Below, one piece after another: positions 5-13,106 of a stretch of 15,575 nucleotides of DNA. Positions within the stretch are counted from its first letter, which is position 1. Each line of letters starts with the position of its first letter. Made by a program: the position numbers and the translations under genes. The DNA is from a virus (lineage: Duplodnaviria; Heunggongvirae; Uroviricota; Caudoviricetes), in the IMG/VR virus record IMGVR_UViG_3300025364_000002; one strand, written 5' to 3'. The notes below the pieces were generated by a model, which worked only from the letters and a program-made list of their open reading frames with translations, made no database searches and was not told where the DNA came from.

Positions 5-124
5 TTATGTTTCAACCTTATCGGTCAGTCTCAACATGCTGAGGATATACCATTGCCTCAATTTATTAGGGACAACTTCTTGGAACATCCAATGTGAATT
101 TGATTGCACGTGATTAGCACGAAT
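5..124 (-). pseudogene. Stranded duplicate of the RNA ligase C-terminus (no start codon)
   Basis: The minus strand translates to IRANHVQSNSHWMFQEVVPNKLRQWYILSMLRLTDKVET*. This parallels the end of the ligase at 716-1345 (YVRANHVTTDERWERNWTPNSLKES*), with RANHV, W and PN-x-L conserved. Confidence 0.8.
111..123. repeat. 13-bp direct repeat TGATTAGCACGAA, copy 1 (left boundary of the LAGLIDADG insertion)
   Basis: Identical to 777-789. Both copies encode the x-RAN-H segment of the ligase on the minus strand. Confidence 0.85.
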
Positions 125-156
125 GCGTGGTAAACCAGTATGTTTATCGTTTGAAC

Positions 157-729
157 ATGATTCTTTCGTTATCAGAAATACAAGCCTATTGGTTAGGCTT
201 TTTGTTTGGAGATGGATATCAAAACGGGTACGAATTAGTTGTGAACCTTGCAGTTAAAGATTACAATCACTTATTTTCATTGAAAAGGGCACTTGATTCA
301 AAACATCCCATCAAAATTATTGATGGCTCAATAGCTTCAATAAGAATTGGAAGTAAGCATTTGTGCAAAGCTCTAACGAAGTTAGGATGCGTTCAAGCCA
401 AAAGCAAAACACTCAAATGGCCCAAAACATTAAAACCGCATCTTCAACGACATTTCATAAGAGGGGTATTTGATGCGGATGGCTGTTTTTATAAGCAAAA
501 GTCTGGACGGACTAAACGTTGGTCTATATATTCAGGGTCCCCAGAATTTTTAGAAGTTATGGCTCAAGTCCTCGCTGGGCATGGTATGCCGACATCAATT
601 AATCAATGTACAATCAATATTACTAAGCAAAAAGTTTTACAGCACATTTATGCTTTTTTATATAAAAAAAGCACTATATATCTACCAAGAAAAAAAGAAA
701 AGTTTGCAACATATATCAACTCTCTTTAA
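157..729 (+). mobile_element. Free-standing double-motif LAGLIDADG homing endonuclease
   Basis: Motif 1 is AYWLGFLFGDG and motif 2 is HFIRGVFDADG. The ORF track starts at GTG 127; ATG 157 (MILSLSEIQAYW) is the more likely start. It is antisense to its neighbours. Confidence 0.9.
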
Positions 730-1345
730 GAGAATTGGGAGTCCAATTTCGTTCCCATCTTTCGTCGGTAGTTACATGATTAGCACGAACATACTTTGCT
801 ACAGATTCCCTAAAATCGTCATAAGCGAAGGAATCATAAAGTCTGATGACGTACCCTTCAGAATTTTCTTCGCCATTCTGGGGCGACCAAGATGCTCTGA
901 TAGCCTCTTCATCATAGAGCCCCACATACAAAACCGGAACATGTTCAATTTCGAGTAGTTGACACCACTCAACCGTAGAACCCCAATCTAAGCAGATGTT
1001 TTCTTCGTTCCAGATCGAGAATGCAAGGAAATATGAGTTGAGTCTTTCATAGGCAATTGAATGTCTGGCAAAGAGATTTTCTCCGCAGATTCGCCATCCT
1101 TCGGGTATATGATGAGATAGACGCCCTTGGAGTGCCTTAACCCAGTTTCGACTGGGGTGGTTCGTCGAAGATGTTGTTCTTGCGTGAATATGGTCTTTAT
1201 ACATGGTTGTGTTTTCGCCATCCATCTTCTCCGTTACTACTACCTTTTTGCCAACAAAATGATCCATCGACTCAAGAATGCTGTCGTCCCGAGTCCCCCC
1301 AGGACTCCAGGGGCAATGATATGTCCGAGGGTATTTGTAATACAT
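716..1345 (-). CDS. ATP-dependent RNA ligase (Rnl2-like, RNA_ligase family)
   Basis: N-terminal KYPRTYH, motif I TEKMDGEN, motif III ICGENL, IIIa FLAFSIW, IV EGYVIR and V AKYVR. A GGAG SD lies upstream. Confidence 0.92.
   Translation of the reverse strand: MYYKYPRTYHCPWSPGGTRDDSILESMDHFVGKKVVVTEKMDGENTTMYKDHIHARTTSSTNHPSRNWVKALQGRLSHHIPEGWRICGENLFARHSIAYERLNSYFLAFSIWNEENICLDWGSTVEWCQLLEIEHVPVLYVGLYDEEAIRASWSPQNGEENSEGYVIRLYDSFAYDDFRESVAKYVRANHVTTDERWERNWTPNSLKES
777..789. repeat. 13-bp direct repeat TGATTAGCACGAA, copy 2 (inside the RNA ligase 3' end)
   Basis: Identical to 111-123; the two copies are 666 bp apart. Confidence 0.85.
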
Positions 1346-1367
1346 GACATTACTCCAGTGATATCAG

Positions 1368-1396
1368 TTTATACCACACGAAAATCGGAAAATCAA
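1368..1396 (-). promoter_or_regulatory. Sigma70-type promoter for the RNA ligase
   Basis: Minus strand TTGATT-17 nt-TATAAA, with TG-n immediately before the -10 box, followed by GGAG and ATG. Confidence 0.7.
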
Positions 1397-1422
1397 CCGA
1401 ATAATGCATATTTGATCAAAAT

Positions 1423-2448
1423 TTATAGTAGTAGATTTTTTACGGTATTTTTAGCATTGGCAGCAGTTTGAAAGATTTTATCTCTGGCTTTTATTGCTAT
1501 TTCTGTATCTGCTTTTTCAAATTTTTTATTGTTCAAGACACTGTCCATCTTAGAAATAAAATTATTTGCTACCGCAACAACAAATTCTTCAGAAGAATTG
1601 TATTGCAATGTCCCGCCATCAAAAATGCCGGCCTTTTCCAAGGCATCCCCGAGAGACTTTATTCCTTGAATGATCCCTTCAACAGATAAGTTATCGACAT
1701 TTACTCCAGGAATTTTTGCACTAACTGTTTTGTCTTTGATGGTTCCATATTTTGCCTGAATAAAGAAATTGACAATATCCTGAAATAGGCTTTCAAAATT
1801 CAGTGATGCGACCTTTTCTTCAGTATGTTTACGAACTCTATAAGGAACTAGAACACCCTTTTGAAGCTTTGCACGAGCGCCTCTATCTCCAATGCTCATC
1901 ATTAAAGCTTCTGCGAGTGCCGCATAAAGCCCACCAGACACAAAACCTTTTACGTTTCTAATTGGAGTGAATCTGGATTTAGCCCAATTGGAATACTTTT
2001 TGTGTGTGACAAAAAAATCAATTTGCACATACTTCCCTGGTTCAATTTCAGCAATTATCACAGGAGTCGTCGCCGCATCACCTTTTGATTCTTCAATGTC
2101 GACGCCTCGGGGTTTGATTTCTCTGAAAAATTCAAACAACTTTTTATTGTAGAACTTTGCAGATATTACTTCATTTTTTCGCTCATCATCGGAGTATTCA
2201 ATCACTGGATATTCAATTAGATAATCAATGTCCCCATAAACATTATTGGGGTTTTCTTCAATATCTTCTTCATAATAATTGCCAGAGCCAATTGGTCGAA
2301 TGGGGTTTATTTCAGGCAACCCTTGATGTTTTAGTTGCAACCATTGATTAAAATCTGCAAGCAGATTTTTGGTGAAGATATCCGCACTTTTTACCAAAAG
2401 TGGCGTAAGAAGAACATCTTGTGTCTTAAGTGACGTCCAACCACCCAT
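1423..2448 (-). CDS. Pol-beta superfamily nucleotidyltransferase, PolX-like core, substrate unknown
   Basis: IGSG...GDIDYLI (GS plus DxD) and a third acid in VQIDFF. The N-terminus may extend upstream (see findings). Confidence 0.7.
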   Translation of the reverse strand: MGGWTSLKTQDVLLTPLLVKSADIFTKNLLADFNQWLQLKHQGLPEINPIRPIGSGNYYEEDIEENPNNVYGDIDYLIEYPVIEYSDDERKNEVISAKFYNKKLFEFFREIKPRGVDIEESKGDAATTPVIIAEIEPGKYVQIDFFVTHKKYSNWAKSRFTPIRNVKGFVSGGLYAALAEALMMSIGDRGARAKLQKGVLVPYRVRKHTEEKVASLNFESLFQDIVNFFIQAKYGTIKDKTVSAKIPGVNVDNLSVEGIIQGIKSLGDALEKAGIFDGGTLQYNSSEEFVVAVANNFISKMDSVLNNKKFEKADTEIAIKARDKIFQTAANAKNTVKNLLL

Positions 2449-2560
2449 TATAATTTGCCCAAACCCAAGTGAAACAATCTCATTCAGTGTTACAGCTTCA
2501 TTTTACAGGATAAACAGCAAACAATAAATCAAGTTTGACCAAGTGTTGATATTTATCCTC

Positions 2561-3280
2561 GTGAGTATCGACATCAAAAGCCTTTCAGTTAAAGAAAAAC
2601 TGAATGACGATATCTGGACGAAGGATAAGAAACTAAAGCCTGAAATTAGAGAAAGGCTTCTTACCCTTGCTGAAGATTTTTATAAAGAGCTTGACATTCC
2701 ATGGGCAGAGCTTGAAGATATTAGGTTTACCGGCTCTCTTGCCAACTACAATTGGTCAAAATACAGTGATGTCGATCTTCATCTCGTTATCGACTACACC
2801 CTTGTTGATGAAAACGTTGATCTTGTTGAAGAATATTTCAAAGCAAGAAAAAGTTTGTGGAATGATTATCACGACATCACCATCCATGGTTTTGACGTCG
2901 AAATATATGTTGAAGATGCTCAAGGAGAGCATTTTTCCTCTGGCGTGTACTCTGTACTGATGGATGAATGGGTAATCGAACCAAAACCGCAAAGTCCAAA
3001 CATCGACAAATTGGCGATAAAAAATAAAGCAAAAGTAATCATGAGGTTGATCGACGATCTTGTTGTTGACAAACTTAAAGAAGGGGATTACGACGGTGCT
3101 ATTAAAGCCGCAGAATTAATGTCGGAAAAAATTAAGAAGATGAGACAGGGTGGTCTTGAATCTGGCGGCGAATACTCAGTAGAAAATCTAACGTTCAAGA
3201 TACTCAGACGAAACGGAACTCTTGATAAGTTGTACGCAACCAAATTGGATGCATACGATAAAATGATGTCAATTGAATAA
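2561..3280 (+). CDS. Pol-beta superfamily nucleotidyltransferase, substrate unknown
   Basis: FTGSLANYNWSKYSDVDLHLVID matches hGS-x10-DhD, with a third acid in FDVEIYVE and a helical C-terminal half. The ORF track starts at GTG 2543; GTG 2561 is preferred. Confidence 0.8.
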   Translation: MSIDIKSLSVKEKLNDDIWTKDKKLKPEIRERLLTLAEDFYKELDIPWAELEDIRFTGSLANYNWSKYSDVDLHLVIDYTLVDENVDLVEEYFKARKSLWNDYHDITIHGFDVEIYVEDAQGEHFSSGVYSVLMDEWVIEPKPQSPNIDKLAIKNKAKVIMRLIDDLVVDKLKEGDYDGAIKAAELMSEKIKKMRQGGLESGGEYSVENLTFKILRRNGTLDKLYATKLDAYDKMMSIE

Positions 3281-3331
3281 ACTTATTTGATTTGTTTGGT
3301 TTTCTCAAGTTTGAAGCTATAATCTCTAGAT

Positions 3332-3745
3332 TCAAACTGCCTCACAAAACAAATTTTTAATTTCATCTTCTATTTCATTTTTATGAATTTTGCTTGGTAT
3401 TGGAAAATAAACAACCTTGTCATTGACGATGAATTTAAAACAATAAAGCCAGTATGTTCTTTTCTCAAGTTCATCATACCAACGAAGTAAAACATAATCA
3501 ACAAAGAAAAAAATGTCGCCGGGTGAAGACACCATAGTAAAAGAAGTTTTGTCAAGGCTGCGTTGACCCATCCACTCTGGATTCGTCACATCTCCATAAA
3601 CCCATACTAGGGACCTGTTCGAGGTATAAATCCTACCCTGTCTTAGACCCATACATTGCAAAATTTCTTCAACCTTTTTTTCTTGATTGCGCTTTGGCTT
3701 CTTTTTGTAAGGTGCTATTCTAGAAAATATATCATCAAAAGACAA
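3332..3745 (-). CDS. Hypothetical protein, possible member of the small SH3/KOW-like family
   Basis: 137-aa ORF with TTG start and GGAGA SD. Contains LRQGRIY...CFKFIVNDKVVYF. Confidence 0.65.
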   Translation of the reverse strand: MSFDDIFSRIAPYKKKPKRNQEKKVEEILQCMGLRQGRIYTSNRSLVWVYGDVTNPEWMGQRSLDKTSFTMVSSPGDIFFFVDYVLLRWYDELEKRTYWLYCFKFIVNDKVVYFPIPSKIHKNEIEDEIKNLFCEAV

Positions 3746-3771
3746 GTTGTTTCTCCGAGTGCAGCTTCATT

Positions 3772-3987
3772 CTACTGTTCTTTGCTATCAAAATCTTCAA
3801 ACCTAACAATGAACACTTTTCCGTAAAGAGTTTTACGCTCGACCCAAGTTTTCGACCAGGTTTTCTTTTCTTTTTCAATCTTGACCCAGCCTTCTTGGTC
3901 ATCCGCCTCAACTGCATCTGGCTCAATTTTGCCATTTAATTCAACTTTATAGTTTTCAAATTTAGGATCATCAGCTTTGTATCTCAT
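3772..3987 (-). CDS. Hypothetical protein (71 aa, MRYKADDPKF...)
   Basis: GGAGAG SD before ATG 3987. The longer start at 4086 overlaps the upstream gene extensively. Confidence 0.65.
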   Translation of the reverse strand: MRYKADDPKFENYKVELNGKIEPDAVEADDQEGWVKIEKEKKTWSKTWVERKTLYGKVFIVRFEDFDSKEQ

Positions 3988-4339
3988 AACTCTCTCCAGA
4001 GACATATTCCCAATAATTGGTCCAATCAAATTGAACAACCACAACCCCTGTGTTGTTTTTTCCGGGCGGTATCGGCACTTCTTCATACCATCTTAGACTT
4101 ACCGGTTCTCCACCTACAAAGAAGTGAAAAAGCCATAGCTCATTATCGATATTTTTATCTTTATGCCAAGGTGGACCACATAGTGCAGCCTTTTCAGAAA
4201 AGAGAAAAAGCACATACGAACCAATATCCATAACATGGTTATGATCAAAAGGATACTTCTGGATAACTCTTAGTAATTTTCCAGGAGTTGGAAGAGAAAC
4301 ATTAGGACTCTTCGCTGTGTCGTCTCTCCATTTCCACAT
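3971..4339 (-). CDS. Hypothetical protein, possible SH3/KOW-like family member
   Basis: 122-aa ORF tiling the operon, with PTPGKLLRV...LFHFFVGGEPVSL. Start uncertain. Confidence 0.6.
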   Translation of the reverse strand: MWKWRDDTAKSPNVSLPTPGKLLRVIQKYPFDHNHVMDIGSYVLFLFSEKAALCGPPWHKDKNIDNELWLFHFFVGGEPVSLRWYEEVPIPPGKNNTGVVVVQFDWTNYWEYVSGESYEIQS

Positions 4340-4730
4340 GTTGTTTAGGATAATCTACCGCTGCAAGCTTTTTCAAAAGCTTTTTGAAATGTTTGATTTC
4401 ATCAACAGCTTCACGATCCCACGTTTCCAGTTTTTCATATTCTTCGTTGGAAACTTCATCCAATCCTTCGTCAAAATATAGGATTTTCTCAATCGCTGCC
4501 TTAGCTCCGCAGATGGCCATCTTGAGATGAAACTCAACTGTTTCTTTCCAGTTTGCACCCTGACTACCTGTTCCTGACGTGGGATGCCAATTATGGCGGG
4601 TGGTGGCCATGACAGCTTCTACCATGTGAAGCTCTGCAAATCTATTACAATATTCGATAAAATCTTTCTTGGTGAGATTGCCGTCTGCAAAATCTTTTTT
4701 CAGCATGTTCATACAAGTTTTTGCGGACAT
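4302..4730 (-). CDS. Hypothetical protein with a WHPTSGTGSQ motif, possibly N-terminally truncated
   Basis: 142-aa ORF tiling the operon, directly downstream of the Thg1 breakpoint. Confidence 0.65.
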   Translation of the reverse strand: MSAKTCMNMLKKDFADGNLTKKDFIEYCNRFAELHMVEAVMATTRHNWHPTSGTGSQGANWKETVEFHLKMAICGAKAAIEKILYFDEGLDEVSNEEYEKLETWDREAVDEIKHFKKLLKKLAAVDYPKQHVEMERRHSEES

Positions 4731-4825
4731 GTCATGTCCCTGGCCCGCATACGATTCGGAAGCACGGTCTTGAACGATGCTTCATACAGTTTCATTCTGT
4801 CGCCTAATGTTGTTTTGTCGGTCAT
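4709..4825 (-). pseudogene. Truncated Thg1-like (tRNA-His guanylyltransferase / 3'-5' polymerase) N-terminal remnant
   Basis: Translates MTDKTTLGDRMKLYEASFKTVLPNRM|RARDMTCPQKLV*. GDRMKxYE-x6-LPxRM is the typical start of bacterial Thg1-like proteins, but the following PVIxRxDG catalytic segment is absent. The ATG overlaps the upstream TGA (ATGA). Confidence 0.75.
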
Positions 4826-5094
4826 AGCAGTTTTCCAGTAAACAAAATTCTAAGTCTCTTACCTAGGCCATGAACACAATCTCTTTCTTCTATGTCGTGT
4901 CTTAGCTTATCAAAACAGGTCTTGCATAAAACCAATTTTCCTGGACTATTAAACTTGTAATCGTTCATCCAGCGTCCAACCCCTAATGTATTTTCTTCGC
5001 TATCACAATTTGCGCAACGACACGGTGCTGTACGATAACTGTCTCTTCTCGGAGTTGAGGGTGGTGTTCGCCAAGGGTAAGGTGTTTTAATCAT
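4822..5094 (-). CDS. Small putative zinc-binding protein
   Basis: CRCANC...CKTC (two CxxC pairs); 90 aa. Confidence 0.6.
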   Translation of the reverse strand: MIKTPYPWRTPPSTPRRDSYRTAPCRCANCDSEENTLGVGRWMNDYKFNSPGKLVLCKTCFDKLRHDIEERDCVHGLGKRLRILFTGKLL

Positions 5095-5102
5095 AAATCT
5101 TT

Positions 5103-5630
5103 CTATACGTAAATTTTTCTATAATATGTTTCAAGCTTTGGCCATTTTGGACCTGGGTGACCGTTCATTCTATGGGTTCCAGAGATAAACCCCATTGTCT
5201 GCCGAAGGTATGTTTTTGCTCGCCTATGTTTTTTTCTTTTGGAGAATCGACCATAGACTCGTCGAGCTTCATCCAAAGTAAAAAACGCATCATCACCAAT
5301 ATAAGCAGCGTGTCCAATGGGCCAATCAACCCAAGGGAGTATATTATAAATAAATGTTCCCTTTAGAGCCTCCAAATCAATTGATCTGTTTGTTTCGGGA
5401 TTTTCATCCCAAATGATCCAGGTACTATTTTTCCGCTCTCCAATGAAATCAGGGAAATTGTGAACGTAGGTCACATCTTGCACTTTAGCCTTCACATAGA
5501 AGGAAGAACAAAATACAAACAATTCATCACCAGGTCGAACAATCCTTCTGACCGGGCACGATTCTGAAATTGGATAATTTTCTGGGTTGTATTCGGTCAT
5601 CTGTATGGTCCTGAAAAACGAGATTGACAT
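5103..5630 (-). CDS. Hypothetical protein
   Basis: 175-aa ORF tiling the operon, with VRPGDELFV and a basic C-terminus. Confidence 0.7.
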   Translation of the reverse strand: MSISFFRTIQMTEYNPENYPISESCPVRRIVRPGDELFVFCSSFYVKAKVQDVTYVHNFPDFIGERKNSTWIIWDENPETNRSIDLEALKGTFIYNILPWVDWPIGHAAYIGDDAFFTLDEARRVYGRFSKRKKHRRAKTYLRQTMGFISGTHRMNGHPGPKWPKLETYYRKIYV

Positions 5631-5635
5631 TCTTC

Positions 5636-6112
5636 TTATTCTCCAATCACTTGGACTTCGGTCTCATCAATATCATTGATGTCAATCGTAACAACTCGTC
5701 CTGAGCCAGTGCAAACAATTCGGCCGTCACTACTAATACCACGAGAAGTAGAGATTTTGGTTATGCCAGTAAAAGTAAGTCCAAGTGCTTCACAAGAAGG
5801 CGAATATTGTTCTCGTTCAGCCGCAGCACTTTGCTCCCTTAGGTCCATGTGAAGATTTTCACATCCTTTGAAAGTTGTAAAAATGATTAAGACCAAGATT
5901 GCAAGACCTAGTAGAACAAATGAACCTATTCCAAAAATTTCCCAGCCTCCCCATTGAATAATGGATTGAAAACATTGTTTCACGAGAACCCAAAACGGTG
6001 GCACTAAATGAGCACCTTCGAGACGTCTGCGCAAGCGGTCAATTTGTTCTCGGGCTTCTTTGTCGATGAAATTTTCTGTTTGAAATTCACCAGACTCTTC
6101 TGATTTGCTCAT
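5636..6112 (-). CDS. Hypothetical membrane protein
   Basis: Hydrophobic stretch IFGIGSFVLLGLAILVLIIFTTF; CGGAG SD before ATG. Confidence 0.75.
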   Translation of the reverse strand: MSKSEESGEFQTENFIDKEAREQIDRLRRRLEGAHLVPPFWVLVKQCFQSIIQWGGWEIFGIGSFVLLGLAILVLIIFTTFKGCENLHMDLREQSAAAEREQYSPSCEALGLTFTGITKISTSRGISSDGRIVCTGSGRVVTIDINDIDETEVQVIGE

Positions 6113-6166
6113 TTTACACTCCGTGGATAGTTCTTAGTATCTGAACTTATCTCTACGGTAGCATAT

Positions 6167-6203
6167 AAAAAAATCCGGATAAACTCAAAAGGCTATCCGG
6201 ATT
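6167..6203 (-). terminator. Intrinsic terminator downstream of 6237-6485
   Basis: 10-bp stem AATCCGGATA/TATCCGGATT (6172-6181 and 6194-6203) with a 12-nt loop, followed by a T-run on the minus strand. Confidence 0.7.
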
Positions 6204-6236
6204 ATACATTTATTTTTTGACACTTTGTAGTATGGG

Positions 6237-6485
6237 CTATTTAGATGATTTAAGCTCTTTTTCTTTCTTTTGGAGCTTTGCATACAATTGCTTTACTTTA
6301 TCTTTTTTTTCTTGCAATGCTTTAAGCTGCTTACGGGCTCTCACCCTTTTTGCTTTACTCTCATTCAAACGACGATTTTGTGTTTTTTTGGCTTCATTGA
6401 TCTTGTGATCAAGTTCTTCTTCAAGAACTTCGTAAATTGTATCTCTGATAGTTTCAAGCAATTGTTCTTTGTTTAGCTTTGTCAT
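6237..6485 (-). CDS. Small acidic-then-basic coiled-coil hypothetical protein
   Basis: 82 aa with GGAG SD; acidic N-terminal half and K/R-rich C-terminal half. TATTTAT motif upstream at 6515-6521. Confidence 0.7.
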   Translation of the reverse strand: MTKLNKEQLLETIRDTIYEVLEEELDHKINEAKKTQNRRLNESKAKRVRARKQLKALQEKKDKVKQLYAKLQKKEKELKSSK

Positions 6486-6544
6486 TGTTTACTCCAACTT
6501 GCGCAAGTCATGAAATAAATATGGCGAAGATGAAGCTTTTTCAA

Positions 6545-6946
6545 CTAAATATCAGAACAATAATCTTGTAAAAAGCTTTCAGAGGGACCCTCGTACCCAT
6601 AATTTACATATCGATGTTTGGTTGAATATTTTTTAATCCAGCCCTTATCGTCCTTTTTTATGGCCTGAGCGTGTTTAAGCTTCCAACGAGCCCTGATCTT
6701 TTTCTGCCGGTTCTTTTCCTTGCCCTCAATTGAAATTGGCCTTAGAAGCTTTGACAGACCTTGGATTGTCACTCCAATATCGATACACTCATCGGCGATG
6801 TCCTCGTTAAACTCCCTACCCGAATTGATTATACGAATAATTTCGTCAATTCGGTCTCTGTAGTCTCTAAGTTTTCTCCCAGCTTTAATGAGATTTTTCG
6901 TTCGATGGACCTGTTCTGCTATTTTCTTTTCTTTCGTTGTGCCCAT
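6545..6946 (-). CDS. Basic hypothetical protein sharing a helical-hairpin domain with the two upstream paralogs
   Basis: 133 aa. LRDYRDRIDEIIRIINSGREFN aligns with LKDLLEVANLLQEQLLDGTELN of 6919-7563. Confidence 0.65.
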   Translation of the reverse strand: MGTTKEKKIAEQVHRTKNLIKAGRKLRDYRDRIDEIIRIINSGREFNEDIADECIDIGVTIQGLSKLLRPISIEGKEKNRQKKIRARWKLKHAQAIKKDDKGWIKKYSTKHRYVNYGYEGPSESFLQDYCSDI

Positions 6947-7563
6947 GTTTCCAAATACCTTGTAACTTGGTCAATCTTATGAAGTCGATCGTTGAGATAG
7001 CGTAGATTTAATTCCGTTCCATCCAGTAATTGCTCCTGAAGAAGATTGGCAACTTCAAGCAAGTCCTTTAGGGCGGCAGCCAATTTCATTTTTTTGTTTG
7101 TTTGTGCCGCCACTTTTGCAGCCTTTTCGTCTTGCTTTTTGGCTTTCCTATTTTCTTTCCTCTTGACAGAAAGACGTGCTTTATAGTCTTTCAGGGATAG
7201 TCCAGCTTTTTTTGCTCCCTTTTTTAGTTTTTCTCGGCGCTCTTGGGCCATTGCACGGTTGTGAGCCTTAATTGCTTCACTTTGAGCTTTTTCTACTTCC
7301 AAAAGAAGTTCTTTATAGTACGGCTTTTTATAGTCTTGGAGGTTGTCAATTTCAACCCAAGTTTTGCCTTTATCTCTACTATAAAAACCAATAGTTTTGC
7401 TGCCATAGTGGCCACTCACAAACTCCCACTTGAGCCAAAATTTGTTAAATTTTCTTATTTCACCTGGCGTTTTTGGAAACTCTTGCCAGATGCTCGTCTG
7501 TCTGGATTTATCCCAAAGTTTTGGGATGGAATAGTAGCTTCCGTCTTTAATAACATAACTCAT
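6919..7563 (-). CDS. Basic hypothetical protein, paralog P1 (Asp-box-like motif, K/R-rich helix, C-terminal helical hairpin)
   Basis: Contains YSRDKGKTW (S-x-D-x-G-x-T-W). Start placed at ATG 7563, which overlaps the TGA of the P2 read-through frame (ATGA); the ORF track start is 7572. Confidence 0.75.
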   Translation of the reverse strand: MSYVIKDGSYYSIPKLWDKSRQTSIWQEFPKTPGEIRKFNKFWLKWEFVSGHYGSKTIGFYSRDKGKTWVEIDNLQDYKKPYYKELLLEVEKAQSEAIKAHNRAMAQERREKLKKGAKKAGLSLKDYKARLSVKRKENRKAKKQDEKAAKVAAQTNKKMKLAAALKDLLEVANLLQEQLLDGTELNLRYLNDRLHKIDQVTRYLETWAQRKKRK

Positions 7564-8225
7564 ATTTGCCATTCCTTTAGGATGTCAACAGCAGTTTGCA
7601 GCCTGCTCGTATAGCGGCTAACATGCGTAATTTTAACTTGGCCCGAATCGAGCTTCTCCATGACTCAATTGATTTCATCTTGGAGTTCTTTTAGAACAGG
7701 ACCAACCTGAATCTTTCTGTTCAACAGTTCTACGTCTTTTTTGGTAGCCTGGCTCTTTCGAGCTTTTTTCTTTCTAGCCTTAAGCTCTTGAATAGTAATG
7801 CCTTTTTTATCGGCCTCTCTCTTTAATTCAGCCCGACGATTTCTTGCTCGTTCACGAGCACGCTGCCTTGCTCTTTCTTTTTTGCTAATTTGAATAGCTT
7901 CTTCAAGCAACTCAACAAGCTTTCTATCAGAGGAGGAACGAACAGCCTCCCGTTCATATCTTTTGGTGTGGTTATCTTCCCGCCAGGTAAGACCATCATC
8001 CAAAGAAAACTTCTTTGTGAGTTTTATAGCGTAAGCGCCACGAACATTATTCCTTTCACGAATATGTGAAGTACGAATCTTTTCTACTGTCCATTTAAAT
8101 AAAATTTTGTCGTGTTTTACGACCAAGTCTGGGGATTCTGGCCAGACTTTGAAGATGGCAGTATCAGCCCAATGCCTTGGTCGAAGTGACTCAATTTTGT
8201 TTGTGGTTTCGTAGTAGTAAGCCAT
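7560..8225 (-). CDS. Basic hypothetical protein, paralog P2, with an internal in-frame TGA at 7665-7667
   Basis: MAYYYETTNK...FSLDDGLTW...LKELQDEIN*VMEKLDSGQVKITHVSRYTSRLQTAVDILKEWQI*. The part after the TGA aligns with the C-terminus of P1. Confidence 0.7.
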
Positions 8226-8231
8226 GAAGGC

Positions 8232-8260
8232 ACTATACCAAATTGTCAGCTGGAATTCAA
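8232..8260 (-). promoter_or_regulatory. Sigma70-type promoter for P2, probably giving a leaderless mRNA
   Basis: TTGAAT-17 nt-TATAGT with TG-n extension. Only 6 nt separate the -10 box from ATG 8225, and there is no SD. Confidence 0.65.
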
Positions 8261-8340
8261 GACAAATAAAAAACCCGAAGCGATTGCTGACCAACCAATT
8301 TTTCAATCTTGGTTATAAGAACCGTATGACACTGATTAAC

Positions 8341-8359
8341 ATTTGCTTAAAAAGCAAAT
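8341..8359 (-). other. Hairpin immediately 3' of the tRNA (processing or termination signal)
   Basis: ATTTGCT-TAAAA-AGCAAAT, a perfect 7-bp stem starting 3 nt after the CCA. Confidence 0.45.
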
Positions 8360-8362
8360 ACT

Positions 8363-8436
8363 TGGCTGCGGGTGTAGGAGTCGAACCCACATTAACCGAT
8401 CCAGAGTCGGTTGTCTTGCCATTAGACGAACCCGCA
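8363..8436 (-). tRNA. tRNA-Gln (anticodon CTG), CCA encoded
   Basis: TGCGGGT TC GTCT AATGGC AAGAC A ACCGA CT-CTG-GA TCGGT TAAT GTGGG TTCGACT CCTAC ACCCGCA G CCA. Full cloverleaf with U1-A72 and G73, typical of tRNA-Gln; 74 nt. Confidence 0.95.
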
Positions 8437-8547
8437 ATCAAGAGAATGGTTTAATGATAAACCTACCAATGTACCCGGCGTTTTACCATTATACTATTCC
8501 CAAATGGTGGCTCTTTTCGAGCCTTGACTCTTCATGAGTTCTGTTAA

Positions 8548-8730
8548 TTATTTGTTAACTTTGCTTTTTACAAACTTAACAAGCTTTGGAACACCCCAGG
8601 AAAGCACCAATCCACCGCCAACAAGCAATGCTGCGACTGCGAGATTTGGAACGCCCCAGACTGCTAGATGCAAACAAAGAAGTGCTGCCGCTGGCCCACC
8701 CCAAAGTGCTACTGTCTTAAGTTTATCCAT
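8548..8730 (-). CDS. Small two-TM membrane protein (60 aa)
   Basis: Two hydrophobic helices and a basic tail; purine-rich leader. A 7-bp hairpin TGAGGAA-ACA-TTCCTCA lies at 8746-8762 upstream. Confidence 0.65.
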   Translation of the reverse strand: MDKLKTVALWGGPAAALLCLHLAVWGVPNLAVAALLVGGGLVLSWGVPKLVKFVKSKVNK

Positions 8731-8818
8731 CTTTCTCTACCTTTCTGAGGAAACATTCCTCAAATAACAAGTAGAGTATACAACGAACAGTATCCACATT
8801 GATAAGTGACTTTTATTT

Positions 8819-9193
8819 TCAGTTTTTGAGCTTATTTCTCCAATAGGTTCTACCCTCTTCTTCGTTGAGATGAAACATGAAATATACGCCCAAATTTATC
8901 AAAACCCAAACAACTATTGCCAAAGCAATCCATTTACCAAACAAACCAAGAGACATTGCAACTATTGCAGGTAACATACCACCATAAAGAAGAATCGCAT
9001 TAATCATTGGCAGAGCCAAATCCCCACCAGATTTATCTACTTCATACCAACCCCATTTAATCATACCAGAAAGAGCCCAAAACCATAGCCAAATTAGATA
9101 TTTGAATGGCCTGATAGGCGAAAAATGTTTCGGTTTCTTGGGTGGCATTGGAATAAAATCCCTCCCATGAGGATCAGACATGTTTTTCTCCAT
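8819..9193 (-). CDS. Hypothetical membrane protein (about three TM segments)
   Basis: Hydrophobic segments YLIWLWFWALSG, AILLYGGMLPAIVAMSLGLF and WIALAIVVWVLINLGVYFMF. Confidence 0.7.
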   Translation of the reverse strand: MEKNMSDPHGRDFIPMPPKKPKHFSPIRPFKYLIWLWFWALSGMIKWGWYEVDKSGGDLALPMINAILLYGGMLPAIVAMSLGLFGKWIALAIVVWVLINLGVYFMFHLNEEEGRTYWRNKLKN

Positions 9194-9548
9194 CGGTAGC
9201 GGTTGTCAAATGCTCAGATGCAATCCAATATAATCGTTCTTGCAATAAGACTTTATAATACCAAGTTCCAGCTCCGTGCTTCTGCTCAAAGCAGAAATTT
9301 AGAACCATTCCACAACCTTCTTGTGGCGGGTTCGACAGTGGTCCAAGAGTAATATCCAAAATTCCAGGCTCGCTTGGATCAATACTCTCTGCTGCCCATT
9401 TCTTGTCTTCGGTTACCGAAGAAGATTTGGAAGTAGCCAAAAAGATACGTTGCCCATATCCACGAGTCATTAACTTTAATGGATGGGTAAAATAAACAAT
9501 TTGCCCAGATTCAAATTGCTTCTTCTTTGGCAGGCTTTTGTTCATCAT
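9174..9548 (-). CDS. Hypothetical protein, small SH3/KOW-like family
   Basis: FESGQIVYF...YYKVLLQERLYWIASEHL. Confidence 0.7.
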   Translation of the reverse strand: MMNKSLPKKKQFESGQIVYFTHPLKLMTRGYGQRIFLATSKSSSVTEDKKWAAESIDPSEPGILDITLGPLSNPPQEGCGMVLNFCFEQKHGAGTWYYKVLLQERLYWIASEHLTTATDGEKHV

Positions 9549-9822
9549 ACACTAACACAAATGCAAGATTGTTTATATTCGTATCAAAGATGCCTTTTCG
9601 TGAAAGAATTCTCATACACCAAGGATTGCAAAATCCAAGTAGTAAAACTGGCTGTCCAGCCTTTGACTCAGGAATCCACTGCCAACCATTTTTGGCACTG
9701 GCTACTGGATGACAATTCCCTTGCTTGTCATCACATAAATCAGTTTGTCCCTTGATACCAACCAAGGAACCGGGAAGAGGGCACCATTTTTTATATTCGA
9801 TCCTCAAAAGCTTATAATTCAT
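9511..9822 (-). CDS. Hypothetical protein, small SH3/KOW-like family
   Basis: PLPGSLVGI...CMRILSRKGIFDTNINNL. Confidence 0.6.
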   Translation of the reverse strand: MNYKLLRIEYKKWCPLPGSLVGIKGQTDLCDDKQGNCHPVASAKNGWQWIPESKAGQPVLLLGFCNPWCMRILSRKGIFDTNINNLAFVLVYDEQKPAKEEAI

Positions 9823-10336
9823 ATACGTTTATAGTAATATTTGTGTCCTTAACGGCCTTTTCCATAAGTTTTTTAACCAAGCCCTTGTCAAGGGCACCAA
9901 GACCACAACCAATCCATGGCATTGCCACTGTTTTCAGTTCAGAGTTGGATTTGGCTCTTTCTAAGTTGATCTCCTGTAAAGATCGTACCATGTTTTTGAG
10001 ACTGCTTTCGACTGCGCTATACGTTGCCGGAAGTCGCCAATGTGATTTGATGGCAAGATTATACACCCAGGTAGAGACAGCCTCTTTTTCTTCAATTCTA
10101 CCAAGAGAATTATGAAAAAGAATCGTCTCATAGTCTTCAAAAAGCCAAGCCATTCCAGGAATTATCCTGCCTTCTTTACATTCATGACGGTAAGCTTCGT
10201 ACATTTGCGGAAACCGTCTTTTGAATTCGACAGCGATGCCTTTGCCCATGGCACCGGCACAATTTACCCCGTGAGCCAAAACCCGCTGCTCCATGACAGC
10301 ATCGAACAAATTTCCCCTAAAAACTTTCACTGACAT
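9812..10336 (-). CDS. Macrodomain protein (Poa1p/TARG1/DarG-like ADP-ribose hydrolase)
   Basis: GNLFD...AHGVNCAGAMGKGIAVEFK...VYNLAIK...AMPWIGCGLG. Confidence 0.88.
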   Translation of the reverse strand: MSVKVFRGNLFDAVMEQRVLAHGVNCAGAMGKGIAVEFKRRFPQMYEAYRHECKEGRIIPGMAWLFEDYETILFHNSLGRIEEKEAVSTWVYNLAIKSHWRLPATYSAVESSLKNMVRSLQEINLERAKSNSELKTVAMPWIGCGLGALDKGLVKKLMEKAVKDTNITINVYEL

Positions 10337-10613
10337 TGATTTTATTCAAAGCCTTTCTTTTTATGAAGACGACTCTTTCATCCCAAAGACATCGGATGCG
10401 ATCTGATTCAAAAAACGGAGCAACAGAGCCTTCAAGTGCGAGTACGATTGAGCCATGAGGAATACGCACAAAATTACCGCCACCTTTAACATAAGCGGTT
10501 ACAAAGGCTGGTTCAGCGAAGCCGGCAAACTCAAGCTTGTTAAAATACTTCTCATGAATATCATCATAAAAAGCATTTACAATGAGCATTTCTCCTGCTT
10601 TGCACCAATACAT
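10317..10613 (-). CDS. Hypothetical protein, small SH3/KOW-like family
   Basis: CKAGEMLIV...RIRCLWDERVVFIKRKAL. Confidence 0.65.
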   Translation of the reverse strand: MYWCKAGEMLIVNAFYDDIHEKYFNKLEFAGFAEPAFVTAYVKGGGNFVRIPHGSIVLALEGSVAPFFESDRIRCLWDERVVFIKRKALNKINVSESF

Positions 10614-10888
10614 GATTCTCTCGCTACGTTATTGGAATTTGCTACCCACACTTCGCCTTCATACAAAACTCTTATCAAGGCTTGATCACCATCCTGGGGT
10701 TTAGAATCCAAAGCCATCAAAACAGTCCCGGCAGGAATTGTCGAATTAGATTCGATACAAGAACCGCTTTCTGTCTTAAAAAAGACTTTTGGCCAAACGC
10801 CATCTGGATCACCTTTAGAGAGATAATGCTCTCTGGTAATTTTTACCAGGTCTCCTGCCACCCAATCATTTAGACGTTTATTGATCAT
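10577..10888 (-). CDS. Hypothetical protein, small SH3/KOW-like family
   Basis: WVAGDLVKI...LIRVLYEGEVWVANSNNV. Confidence 0.7.
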   Translation of the reverse strand: MINKRLNDWVAGDLVKITREHYLSKGDPDGVWPKVFFKTESGSCIESNSTIPAGTVLMALDSKPQDGDQALIRVLYEGEVWVANSNNVARESCIGAKQEKCSL

Positions 10889-11654
10889 CCCCTACAATTT
10901 GATACTTCTTCCAGCATTTCTTAGCTTTTACACTTTTGAAAACACCTTGAGGGTTCTCTGGGGTAAGTATGATGCAAGATAAGCGTCCCCCAAAACATGA
11001 ACCAGTATCTAGTCCGATCATTCGTGCTCCTTTTTTATTGTAATCAACAACAGGAGCATCAAAAGACCGTACATCGTGGCCGTAAATGATGTCAATGTGC
11101 CCATCATAAACTTCAGTCCAATGGACTGAATTTTCTGGTTTGGTAAACCCAGGCCCAAGGCTCAATTGCTGATAAGAATCTTTGTCGATATATCGAGTAA
11201 AGATGTACTCCTCACGGTCACGTTTGTCCCAAGGCTCATCTTTCGGCAAAACACCAGCATGAACCACCAAAGCATTATATTCCCAAATAGGGACACAATA
11301 TTTGCCGGCTTCAAGGTAGTCAAGATTTTTATCGGTTAATGATTGCCAAACTTCTTGCTTGTGTCCATAGAGCGATATGGGGTTGCGATAATGCTTGCGG
11401 CCCACATGGGTTTTCTTCTGTTCGTGACGACGATAGCGGATATACTTGTCATCATGATTGCCGATGCAAATTTCAGCTCCAAGCTCCTCGGCATAGCTGA
11501 CAACTTCTGCCGACTTGGGCCCACGATCGACAAGGTCGCCTGCGAAAATCAGGCGATCCTTATCCTTGTTATACTCGCATAGTTCAATGAGTTCTACCAA
11601 CTCATCGAGCATTCCGTGAATATCCCCACATACAATGACCTTTTTTCTTACCAT
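10878..11654 (-). CDS. Calcineurin-like metallophosphoesterase (ApaH/PrpA/Pnkp-phosphatase-like)
   Basis: Motifs GDIHG, GDLVDRGP, GNHD, VHAG, YGH and LDTG. Confidence 0.92.
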   Translation of the reverse strand: MVRKKVIVCGDIHGMLDELVELIELCEYNKDKDRLIFAGDLVDRGPKSAEVVSYAEELGAEICIGNHDDKYIRYRRHEQKKTHVGRKHYRNPISLYGHKQEVWQSLTDKNLDYLEAGKYCVPIWEYNALVVHAGVLPKDEPWDKRDREEYIFTRYIDKDSYQQLSLGPGFTKPENSVHWTEVYDGHIDIIYGHDVRSFDAPVVDYNKKGARMIGLDTGSCFGGRLSCIILTPENPQGVFKSVKAKKCWKKYQIVGDDQ

Positions 11655-11660
11655 GATAAA

Positions 11661-11689
11661 ACCATATCACCTTGAAGGAAAAGTTTGAA
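11661..11689 (-). promoter_or_regulatory. Candidate extended -10 promoter for the phosphoesterase, supplied by the HEG insert and probably leaderless
   Basis: TTCAAA-17 nt-TATGGT with TG-n; 6 nt to ATG 11654. Confidence 0.45.
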
Positions 11690-12408
11690 TGTATAAACTA
11701 TATTGTTTATTTGAATCAGAAACAGGTCAAGTGTTTTACATAGGAATTACTCGGAGAACTTTAAAGGAAAGACTTCAGTCGCATACTTGGAATTCGCATT
11801 GTAAAATAAACAGAAGATGAAAATCAACAACTCCTAAATCAAATTATATTCGTGAATTAAAAACTAAAAAGAAAAAATTTGAAATTGTTGGTTTGTTGGA
11901 ATCTGCTGACAAAACCTATATTGAAAATGCCGAACGTCGCTATATCGCTTTTGCAAAAAGAATGAAATTTAATTTAACTAATGCCACTTCGGGCGGCCAA
12001 GGAATACAGGAATATAAACATAAACCAGAAACAATAGAAAGGTTACGCAAACTAAATTCTGGCAAAAACAATCCTCAGTGGGGCAAAACTCCTTCAAAGG
12101 AAACTAGAGCAAAACAACGTAAAGCTCTTAAAGGCAAGCCTAGACCACGTCCAAAAGATTATAAAGGATGGAAACGTCGAATTTCAAAAAATCATGCTGA
12201 TGTCTCTGGTAAAAATAATCCAATGTTTGGTAAACCTGCTCCAACACGAAAAAGAACTATTCAATATGATTTGAATGGCAATAAAATTGCCGAATTTGCA
12301 AGTGCTACGGCTGCTGCCAAAGCTATTAATTTATCCCGAGTAACAATTTCTAATTGTGCTTCTGGTTATTCATCAACAGCTGGTGGGTTTGTTTGGAAGT
12401 ACGAATAA
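11689..12408 (+). mobile_element. Free-standing GIY-YIG homing endonuclease with NUMOD3 repeats and a C-terminal NUMOD1/IENR1 HTH; in-frame TGA at 11818-11820
   Basis: From ATG 11689: MYKLYCLFESETGQVFYIGITRRTLKERLQSH...NRR*KSTTPK...AERRYI...NLTN, in frame with track ORF 11893-12408. NUMOD3-like repeats SGKNNPQWGK and SGKNNPMFGK; C-terminal QYDLNGNKIAEFASATAAAK...GGFVWKY. Confidence 0.88.
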
Positions 12409-12427
12409 TTGTTTTAACACGTGCCAT
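12404..12427 (-). pseudogene. Stranded duplicate of the phosphoesterase N-terminus
   Basis: TAAGGTGA SD followed by ATG GCA CGT GTT AAA ACA ATT ATT = MARVKTII, versus the current start MVRKKVIV(CGDIHG). The frame then runs into antisense HEG sequence. Confidence 0.55.
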
Positions 12428-12476
12428 GACTCACCTTATCAAGTTTTTGGCGATTTGTAAACCGGGAAAGTTTTAT

Positions 12477-13106
12477 TTAGCCAAACTTCCAATCCACAGT
12501 AACGTTTACCTTCATTGAAGGAATTCTTTTGTGGTTTGCAAGATTATGCTGTAAACATTCATCCGGAGTAATGAACCAATCTGCGCCTCTCTTTTGAGTG
12601 ACAATATCATAGAAATAATTTTCATCATCGTGACCGCAGTTACTGGCCATCTTTCTATAGATAAGTTTATTCAACCTCGTTGTTTCTTCGGCCGAAGCTT
12701 TAACCTCGGGTTCTTTGCCCCAAGAAAATGAAGAAACATCATGGATAAGCACTGTAGCGTGTGGGCCCACATAACGATGTCCTTCCGCACCACATGTGAA
12801 AAGAACTGCTCCACAAGACATTGCTTTTCCTTCAACAATGGTTGCAACAGGAATTTTACAATGATCAATAGAATCTATCATTGATAGAAGCGCATAAACA
12901 GAGCCACCATAAGAATCAATAACAATTGGAATAATATCCTGTTTAGACTTCATCGCATGTGATTCTGCGATTTCAAGTTCATGCCGAAATCTTTTAGCGC
13001 TTTCTTCACTAAATTCTCCGCTAAAAACTATATAAACTGGAAGATCAAGTTGTTCTTCTGGTTTTTCAATTTTGATTCTTGAATCTAAGTCGACAAGATA
13101 TCTCAT
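12477..13106 (-). CDS. clpP: ClpP-family (peptidase S14) protease subunit
   Basis: IDSYGGSV, catalytic Ser in AMSCGA, His in LIHD, and DWFITPDE. AAGGAG SD. Confidence 0.9.
   Translation of the reverse strand: MRYLVDLDSRIKIEKPEEQLDLPVYIVFSGEFSEESAKRFRHELEIAESHAMKSKQDIIPIVIDSYGGSVYALLSMIDSIDHCKIPVATIVEGKAMSCGAVLFTCGAEGHRYVGPHATVLIHDVSSFSWGKEPEVKASAEETTRLNKLIYRKMASNCGHDDENYFYDIVTQKRGADWFITPDECLQHNLANHKRIPSMKVNVTVDWKFG

Follow-up and report, generated by a model that had tools for sequence, protein, structure and literature searches.

Probable substitute-terminus homing-endonuclease cassettes inside an RNA ligase gene and a phosphoesterase gene of a huge uncultured phage

How can a homing endonuclease gene (HEG) settle within the coding sequence of an enzyme and leave that enzyme whole? 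The question is raised by a 15,575-nucleotide stretch of a caudoviricete genome (IMG/VR record IMGVR_UViG_3300025364_000002; hereafter the window), in which a LAGLIDADG gene lies at the 3' end of an RNA ligase gene and a GIY-YIG gene at the 5' end of a calcineurin-like phosphoesterase gene. Our answer, to which we give a probability of roughly 85%, is that the window carries two substitute-terminus cassettes, each lodged inside a host gene within a few codons of one end of the coding sequence. Each cassette would consist of an opposite-strand nuclease gene and a diverged copy of the gene end that it displaced: the LAGLIDADG cassette would bring the last ~20 codons and the stop of the ligase, the GIY-YIG cassette a ribosome-binding site, a start codon and the first 9 codons of the phosphoesterase. 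An earlier note on this DNA had proposed that insertions by two independent HEG families are tolerated through a spare gene end, and this is borne out by empty sites that map both insertions with a precision of a few bases and by host frames that are complete. Presence and absence concern one precise site: L010-L015 and L018-L021 are empty, with intact targets, and the window, L002, L003, L006-L009 and L017 are filled (contigs bear L numbers and proteins P numbers). The same structure is found in contigs from ENA and from the Joint Genome Institute (JGI), with the junctions in at least six independent assemblies. The native ends lie stranded beyond the nuclease genes, and the substitute ends are either foreign to the host body or travel with the nuclease gene.

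The ligase (209 amino acids; 716..1345, minus strand) belongs to the Rnl2-like nucleotidyltransferase-only ligases; it matches PF09414 with an E-value of 2e-34 over profile positions 2-171 of 171 and has, besides the full domain, the KxDG motif I (EKMDGEN) and the motif V lysine (AKYVR). The gene is a hybrid of a native body and a foreign tail, with a complete frame. The substitute tail (716..776, minus strand) amounts to about 20-22 codons, including the last 20 and the stop, as judged from the homology to the HEG-less relative L018, which ends at ~774. The C-terminus of the hybrid reads ...AKYVRANHVTTDERWERNWTPNSLKES, and the last 14 nucleotides (nt) of the tail overlap the 3' end of the LAGLIDADG open reading frame (ORF). 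At 777-789 stands the first copy of a 13-nt string, TTCGTGCTAATCA (minus strand), which covers the codons V186-H190 just past the motif V lysine (Lys184); the insertion point lies 1-3 codons past motif V. The second copy, at 111-123, opens the displaced native tail, a stump of ~38 codons on the minus strand (5..123) with its stop at 5-7, recognised by its match to L018. The stump frame reads (I)RANHVQSNSHWMFQEVVPNKLRQ and the current ligase tail (V)RANHVTTDERWERNWTPNSLKES; the sequence upstream of the second 13-nt copy has no ligase similarity. The earlier note had described an antisense LAGLIDADG gene at an end of the ligase gene beside motif V, with a duplicate and recoded terminus, and these elements are all present where it placed them.

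The empty ligase site is seen in a HEG-less relative (L018-L021; ENA scaffold_485 and three other assemblies) that has the gene order of the window. In L018 the ligase ends ...KYVRANHVQSDSHWMFEEVVPNKLKV and is followed 30 nt later by the same 427-amino-acid DNA polymerase A gene. BLAST of L018 against a cassette-bearing contig gave an alignment up to about window position 774 and again from window position 121, and the two segments overlap by 14 nt, at the 13-nt string. This gives an insert of about 650 nt for the window (124-776), against about 1,040 nt for L002. Stump and native L018 tail share 88% identity over 60 nt (E 1e-16).

The tails were compared over the last 22 residues of 118 ligase homologues. 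The body of the window ligase is 79-85% identical to P0002-P0004 (79% to P0003), and it is with the tails of its nearest relatives by body that the stump agrees best, at 20/22 (P0003), 18/22 (P0014) and 16/22 (P0004) positions. The current tail agrees with the tails of close relatives at 8-10/22 positions only; its best match outside its own cluster is P0015 (18/22), the body of which is 60% identical to that of the window ligase. Since the in-gene tail matches the distant P0015 while the stump matches close relatives, the spare tail is phylogenetically foreign to the body that carries it. In the adjoining stretch 785-830 (ligase residues ~173-187), DFRESVAKYVR resembles AFRESMAKYVR of P0015 and not the closest relatives, which have DFEKS, DFEES or DFGKC. 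The donor of the tail may have contributed this stretch as well, by a short tract of co-conversion; RES occurs in other homologues too.

The arrangement is not confined to this ligase locus. LAGLIDADG homologues that are 40-48% identical were found in four other phage contexts: beside a tRNA synthetase and a PARP-like gene (L027-29), amid nucleotide-metabolism genes (L030), on a GC-rich contig (L031) and beside a TnpB-like gene (L032-33). At all four loci the nuclease overlaps the 3' end of an opposite-strand PF09414 ligase, and close upstream of the nuclease start there is a second ligase tail. The stumps read NHVQTTEHWKNQEITRNGL (L030), RPNHVQTGDHWMYQEIVPNGLASR (L031) and VRRGHVQTSNFWMNEMVIPNRLKK (L032); that of L027 is frameshifted (KNHVMSVGNW / IPNLLKHN). 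All stumps open at (R/x)xxHV codons, within about 6 nt of AAY-CAY-GT, and the five ligase loci have one and the same insertion point, directly after motif V. The unrelated neighbourhoods together with the still-readable stumps point to repeated site-specific invasion rather than to one inherited event. The expectation that duplicated termini would turn up at further HEG loci is met by the LAGLIDADG relatives, four of four, which is a small sample. A protein screen of flank against flank recovered four of the five ligase duplicates and missed the frameshifted L027 stump as well as the 8-codon phosphoesterase stump described below. Scans of IMG/VR returned one relative of the ligase at 51%, three relatives of the GIY-YIG protein at 28-36% and none with the LAGLIDADG protein; a metagenome scan with the GIY-YIG protein led to the same distant loci as IMG/VR, and tblastn against isolated phages gave distant intron-type LAGLIDADG cores and seg-like GIY-YIG genes only. 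On L032 the HEG-invaded ligase has an IS605 OrfB/TnpB-like gene (4336-5598) as its immediate upstream neighbour, which adds a mobile nuclease of another kind to the locus.

In the window the LAGLIDADG ORF (157..729, plus strand) is a deletion allele of 190 amino acids, counted from the ATG at 157 (a GTG lies at 127). It matches PF14528 with an E-value of 2e-9; the family is above cut-off in the window ORF, L002, L027 and L030, and the two acidic LAGLIDADG-type motifs are LGFLFGDGY and IRGVFDADGC. The full-length nuclease of L002 and L003 (309-320 amino acids) has three CxxC...C..C zinc-ribbon repeats before the two-motif LAGLIDADG core. Compared with L002 and L003, the window has 99.8-99.96% identity on matching stretches and is 390 bases short between positions 171 and 172. 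The loss is in frame and removes 130 codons, exactly the zinc-ribbon region, with the ATG at 157 and the LAGLIDADG core retained; no direct repeats were found at the edges of the deletion. Phage HEGs with in-frame deletions in their repeated zinc-finger DNA-binding regions are on record for ICP1 (PMC10448857).

The second case concerns the start of a gene. The phosphoesterase (258 amino acids; 10878..11654, minus strand; PF00149, E 1e-15) starts MVRKKVIVCGDIHG and has the metal-binding motifs GDIHG and GDLVDRG. It is also a hybrid with a complete frame, in which substitute codons 1-9 precede a native body from GDIHG onward. By comparison with L017, the substitute 5' end (11628..11688, minus strand) comprises a 34-nt spacer with AAGGTGAT, the start and codons 1-9 (MVRKKVIVC). 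The displaced native start (12404..12437, minus strand) still has its AAGGTGA (12437-12431), ATG (12427-12425) and codons 1-8, MARVKTII, and is colinear with the HEG-less L010; the stranded frame, 25 codons in all, continues antisense to the HEG until 12350. In L010-L015 (six assemblies) a ClpP-like protease gene is followed after 50 nt by a phosphoesterase gene starting MARVKTIIVGDVHG, and there is no nuclease gene. The ClpP-like gene is the upstream neighbour in the window too (12477..13106, minus strand; PF00574) and fixes the synteny of the empty site. Homology between the window and L010 is unbroken from ClpP via the Shine-Dalgarno sequence, the ATG and codon 8 to 12404, and begins again at 11627, with the G of GDIHG (codon 10); thus 776 nt (11628-12403) are inserted between native codons 8 and 10. 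The displaced start is accepted because the synteny with L010 is colinear through codon 8. Moreover, the stump protein equals the start of the HEG-less P0124, and the inserted start is common only to the HEG-bearing P0122. An antisense GIY-YIG gene at an end of the phosphoesterase gene beside GDIHG, with a recoded duplicate terminus, was likewise part of the earlier note; the displacement of the native start is shown here against the empty site of L010.

The nuclease gene in this insert (11689..12408, plus strand; 239 codons) has GIY-YIG, NUMOD3 and NUMOD1 domains according to Pfam and lies 34 nt upstream of the phosphoesterase start. The remaining letters of its last codon and TAA stop (12406-12408) come from the stranded native codons ATT ATT. 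A TGA at 11818-11820 (codon 44) interrupts the gene, and PF01541 reaches its cut-off (24.1 versus 22.6 bits) only if this TGA is read through. An open frame that joins the GIY-YIG domain to the DNA-binding module is absent from the window and present in the orthologue of L017, which has TGG at this codon; L006-L009 share the TGA, with 0 differences. The TGA is a fixed nonsense mutation inside the catalytic domain; like the LAGLIDADG gene, which is deprived of its zinc-ribbon DNA-binding region, this gene is no longer in its active phase here. Reading TGA as tryptophan, which would reopen the frame and agree with the TGG of L017, was considered and rejected: TGA ends 10 of the 25 window genes, and the TGA stop of the ligase lies at the same position as in homologues.

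L017 is a third lineage with the same arrangement, and its phosphoesterase is 82% identical in protein. It carries an open HEG of 239 amino acids, a substitute start MARKKVIVC and its own stump, 4 nt shorter. Judged by their host genes, the three lineages (window, L017 and L010) lie at roughly equal distances from one another. In the comparison of window and L017, identity is 88.7% in the HEG and 91.8% in the spacer plus substitute codons, against 74.1% in four flanking host genes (Fisher p 3e-17). One would not expect a selfish gene to be more conserved than enzymes. Because its identity exceeds that of the host genes, the cassette, including the spare gene start, has been shared more recently than the genomes.

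Homing by double-strand break repair with co-conversion has been reviewed (PMC2988022), and both loci can be understood along these lines. The nuclease would cut an uninterrupted allele across the later junction, that is between KYVR and ANHV in the ligase and at codons 8-10 before GDxHG in the phosphoesterase. Repair of the break from a cassette-bearing genome would copy in the nuclease gene together with the donor gene end, and the recoded end and the split site would make the new allele uncuttable. The stump would be the recipient's own end from the break outward, which would later serve as a homology arm. A first entry into a genome without homology on the far side would probably involve one homologous and one illegitimate junction; an illegitimate junction at the break, on entry into genomes with other neighbour genes, is also proposed as the reason why the stumps start at a fixed position.

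We have considered whether the family itself is specialised. In this wider reading, the zinc-ribbon-LAGLIDADG proteins would be a dedicated, long-lived home-and-rescue drive for PF09414 ligase tails across huge phages, the stump would be retained for its use as the far homology arm, and perhaps as an operator for autorepression too, and substitute-terminus cassettes at 5' and 3' ends would be common. I-TevI represses its own promoter at a site that resembles its homing site. We regard this extension as doubtful.

Several points weigh against the interpretation as two substitute-terminus cassettes. The comparison of cassette and flanks involves one second lineage, L017, on a 3-kb contig in which the left boundary of the GIY-YIG cassette is out of view. 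P0015 lies on an unrelated GC-rich contig without a nearby LAGLIDADG gene; it could stand for the donor clade, or for an allele from which the nuclease was lost. The proposed target sites are deduced from the junctions alone, and both nucleases are damaged in the window, which makes mobility now unlikely. The distant GIY-YIG loci L022-L024 have no flank duplication in a screen that is blind to 8-codon stumps. Finally, the 8-codon phosphoesterase stump taken by itself is not distinguishable from chance.

The rival that deserves most attention is a single ancient insertion per gene that has been inherited ever since, with the recurrence at ligases due to shared ancestry and not to repeated homing. 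The decay of both nucleases in the window would agree with this, as would the five LAGLIDADG proteins, which are only 40-48% identical and fit an old divergence. However, the five ligase loci have unrelated neighbours and very different base compositions, and four of the five stumps are open and recognisable despite the deep divergence of the HEGs, which argues for renewal by repeated invasion. In addition, HEG-less alleles occur in a lineage whose distance from the window is about that of the HEG-bearing L017, and in similarity between lineages the GIY-YIG cassette exceeds the host genes by 15 points. Inheritance as a relic is therefore held to be unlikely. A gene end could also have been duplicated in tandem by a replication error, with a HEG inserted later between the copies and no end transported at all; the identical 13-nt string on both sides of the ligase insert would suit such an origin. 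Outside these 13 nt the two tails of the ligase have diverged strongly, with a 1-codon indel in one of them; the in-gene copy clusters with the distant P0015 and the stump with close relatives, which is the opposite of what is expected of paralogues, and the substitute phosphoesterase start is common to L017 as part of the cassette. We consider tandem duplication very unlikely.

LAGLIDADG and GIY-YIG genes are most often borne by introns or inteins, and there are documented phage cases in which HEG insertions have split nrdA, gene 60 and gene 43 (PMC2988022), so that a group I intron, an intein or host genes in pieces come to mind as well. Both HEGs are, however, on the strand opposite to their host genes, the host frames are continuous and of full length compared with homologues, no Rfam intron family matches in the window, and the stumps (8 and ~38 codons) are too short and too redundant for functional gene pieces; such an origin is extremely improbable. 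For chance resemblance or an assembly artefact one could cite the phosphoesterase stump and its lack of significance on its own. This stump is embedded in unbroken colinear homology from ClpP through codon 8, the ligase stump has an E-value of 1e-16 against L018, and identical junctions recur across the independent assemblies, which leaves a negligible chance for either. The two substitute-terminus cassettes thus remain our preferred interpretation.

As regards the source of the window, megablast of the whole stretch against 50,697 phage records gave no DNA match, and at the protein level it resembles huge and jumbo phages. The ligase is 50-53% identical to those of uncultured 480-735 kb phages, Salicola phage SCTP-2, Ralstonia phage RsoM2USA and Caulobacter jumbo phages, and the exact phosphoesterase protein is found on metagenome contigs of up to 461 kb. 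The source is a huge uncultured phage, whose longest assembled contig is about 461 kb. Nearly all window genes are on the minus strand. Gene calls on near-identical contigs agree with the count in the earlier note, by which the two HEGs make up two of three plus-strand genes; the third is the ORF at 2543..3280 (plus strand), which is kept in relatives and is not a nuclease. An Rfam scan of the window at gathering scores found tRNA only and no intron family. A scan for sigma-70 promoters round both loci gave promoter-like sites no commoner than in shuffled sequence. Terminator-like stem-loops were above shuffled sequence round the two loci (5 versus a mean of 1.0, and 3 versus 1.2), and none at either locus could be tied to a HEG or a gene boundary; neither the promoter nor the terminator result is given weight.

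Some further observations concern the surroundings. The ligase neighbours at 1423-2448 (minus strand) and 2543-3280 (plus strand) have no significant Pfam match; both products contain GS...D.D-type strings that might resemble nucleotidyltransferase-fold motifs, and the plus-strand neighbour is conserved in a HEG-less relative (L016 19332-20051). The window has a Macro-domain gene at 9812-10336, to which relatives add Thg1, an Rnl1-type ligase and NUDIX, and the region looks like a possible RNA-repair module. A tRNA-Gln (anticodon CTG; 8363-8436, minus strand; 58.7 bits in Rfam, also called by ARAGORN) lies amid small minus-strand ORFs. The 427-amino-acid A-family polymerase gene past the ligase stump (L002 6046-7329; L018 2869-4152) is short for a full PolA and may encode a fragment or a split polymerase. 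Two assemblies of a HEG-less relative (L019 7597-8355 versus L018 8064-8770) differ through a gene swap, with a Thg1-like gene in one and two small ORFs in the other. On L004, a GC-rich contig, a conserved element of ~40 nt stands before successive genes (at about 230-290, 940-1000, 1270-1330 and 1640-1700) and in one frame translates as ...RFTSD(R/L)QFGII...; a promoter or some other regulatory repeat is its probable identity.

What would follow from these cassettes? Phage HEGs could invade coding sequence without an intron, an intein or splitting, provided that a spare gene end compensates for the loss. The junctions may indicate the likely targets of two uncharacterised nucleases, which would be useful in the search for rare-cutting enzymes. 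The stumps are, so to speak, dated fossils of invasion and would account for small unannotated orphan frames and for chimeric enzyme termini in phages. The tie of one LAGLIDADG lineage to one ligase motif at five of five loci suggests a stable parasite-target relationship that can be traced in metagenomes. If the doubtful reading of a home-and-rescue family were true, cassettes at both gene ends would amount to a common and unrecognised route of gene-end exchange in phages.

The closest known counterparts are the mORF gene hybrids of fungal mitochondria, described for atp6 of Allomyces macrogynus, for atp6, atp9, cox2 and nad3 of Glomus sp. and for cob and atp6 of Endoconidiophora (PMC3630166, PMC6279837). 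There, too, a LAGLIDADG or GIY-YIG gene sits near the end of a host gene together with a foreign copy of that end, and the native end is left beyond the nuclease gene and is closer to relatives than the inserted end. This layout, a complete frame with a displaced native terminus, is found at both window loci and at four more ligase loci. The differences are that those hybrids occur in organelles and ours in a huge phage; that the fungal mORFs are co-oriented and often in phase with the host gene, whereas both nucleases here are antisense; that the ligase tail overlaps the 3' end of the HEG; and that the cited fungal cases are all C-terminal, whereas the phosphoesterase case is a 5' end that needs its own ribosome site and start codon. 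The earlier note had further supposed that antisense orientation might keep the HEG off the transcript of the host operon; since the fungal equivalents are co-oriented and in phase (PMC3630166), the strategy does not require this. The suggestion in the earlier note of a possibly overlooked mobility strategy has to be narrowed accordingly: the strategy has been known in fungal mitochondria since Allomyces atp6, and the part that stands is its presence in phages, for which our literature search, incomplete in coverage, found no paper describing a substitute-terminus layout.

Among phages, the seg and mob HEGs of T4-like phages belong to nuclease families with NUMOD or zinc-finger DNA-binding modules and target conserved neighbour genes, as do the genes discussed here. 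They spread by intronless homing, in which a break is repaired with co-conversion of flanks, and differences between donor and recipient alleles confer immunity, much as in the mechanism proposed above. The free-standing HEGs of T4 sit between genes, however, whereas here the insertion is in coding sequence and a displaced duplicate end remains. Free-standing HEGs in critical regions of enzyme genes, with neither intron nor intein, are also known from nrdA/mobE of Aeromonas phage Aeh1, gene 60/mobA of T4 and gene 43 of phage 25 (PMC2988022). In these split genes two polypeptides reassemble, whereas here the gene stays whole by virtue of a replaced end; intragenic phage HEG insertions appear in that review solely as gene-splitting events. 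The logic is further shared with engineered home-and-rescue gene drives (PMC7968924), in which a nuclease placed in a needed gene is accompanied by a recoded, cut-immune rescue copy. Those drives are synthetic, CRISPR-based and used in insects, whereas the cassettes described here are natural, protein-guided and in phages, and the likeness is one of logic and not of ancestry. Set against the fungal hybrids, what differs is the phage host, the antisense nucleases, the overlap of tail and HEG and a 5'-end version with its own translation signals; the most useful new points are the association of LAGLIDADG and ligase at five of five loci and a clean example at a 5' end, for which both an empty site as control and an intact sister cassette exist.

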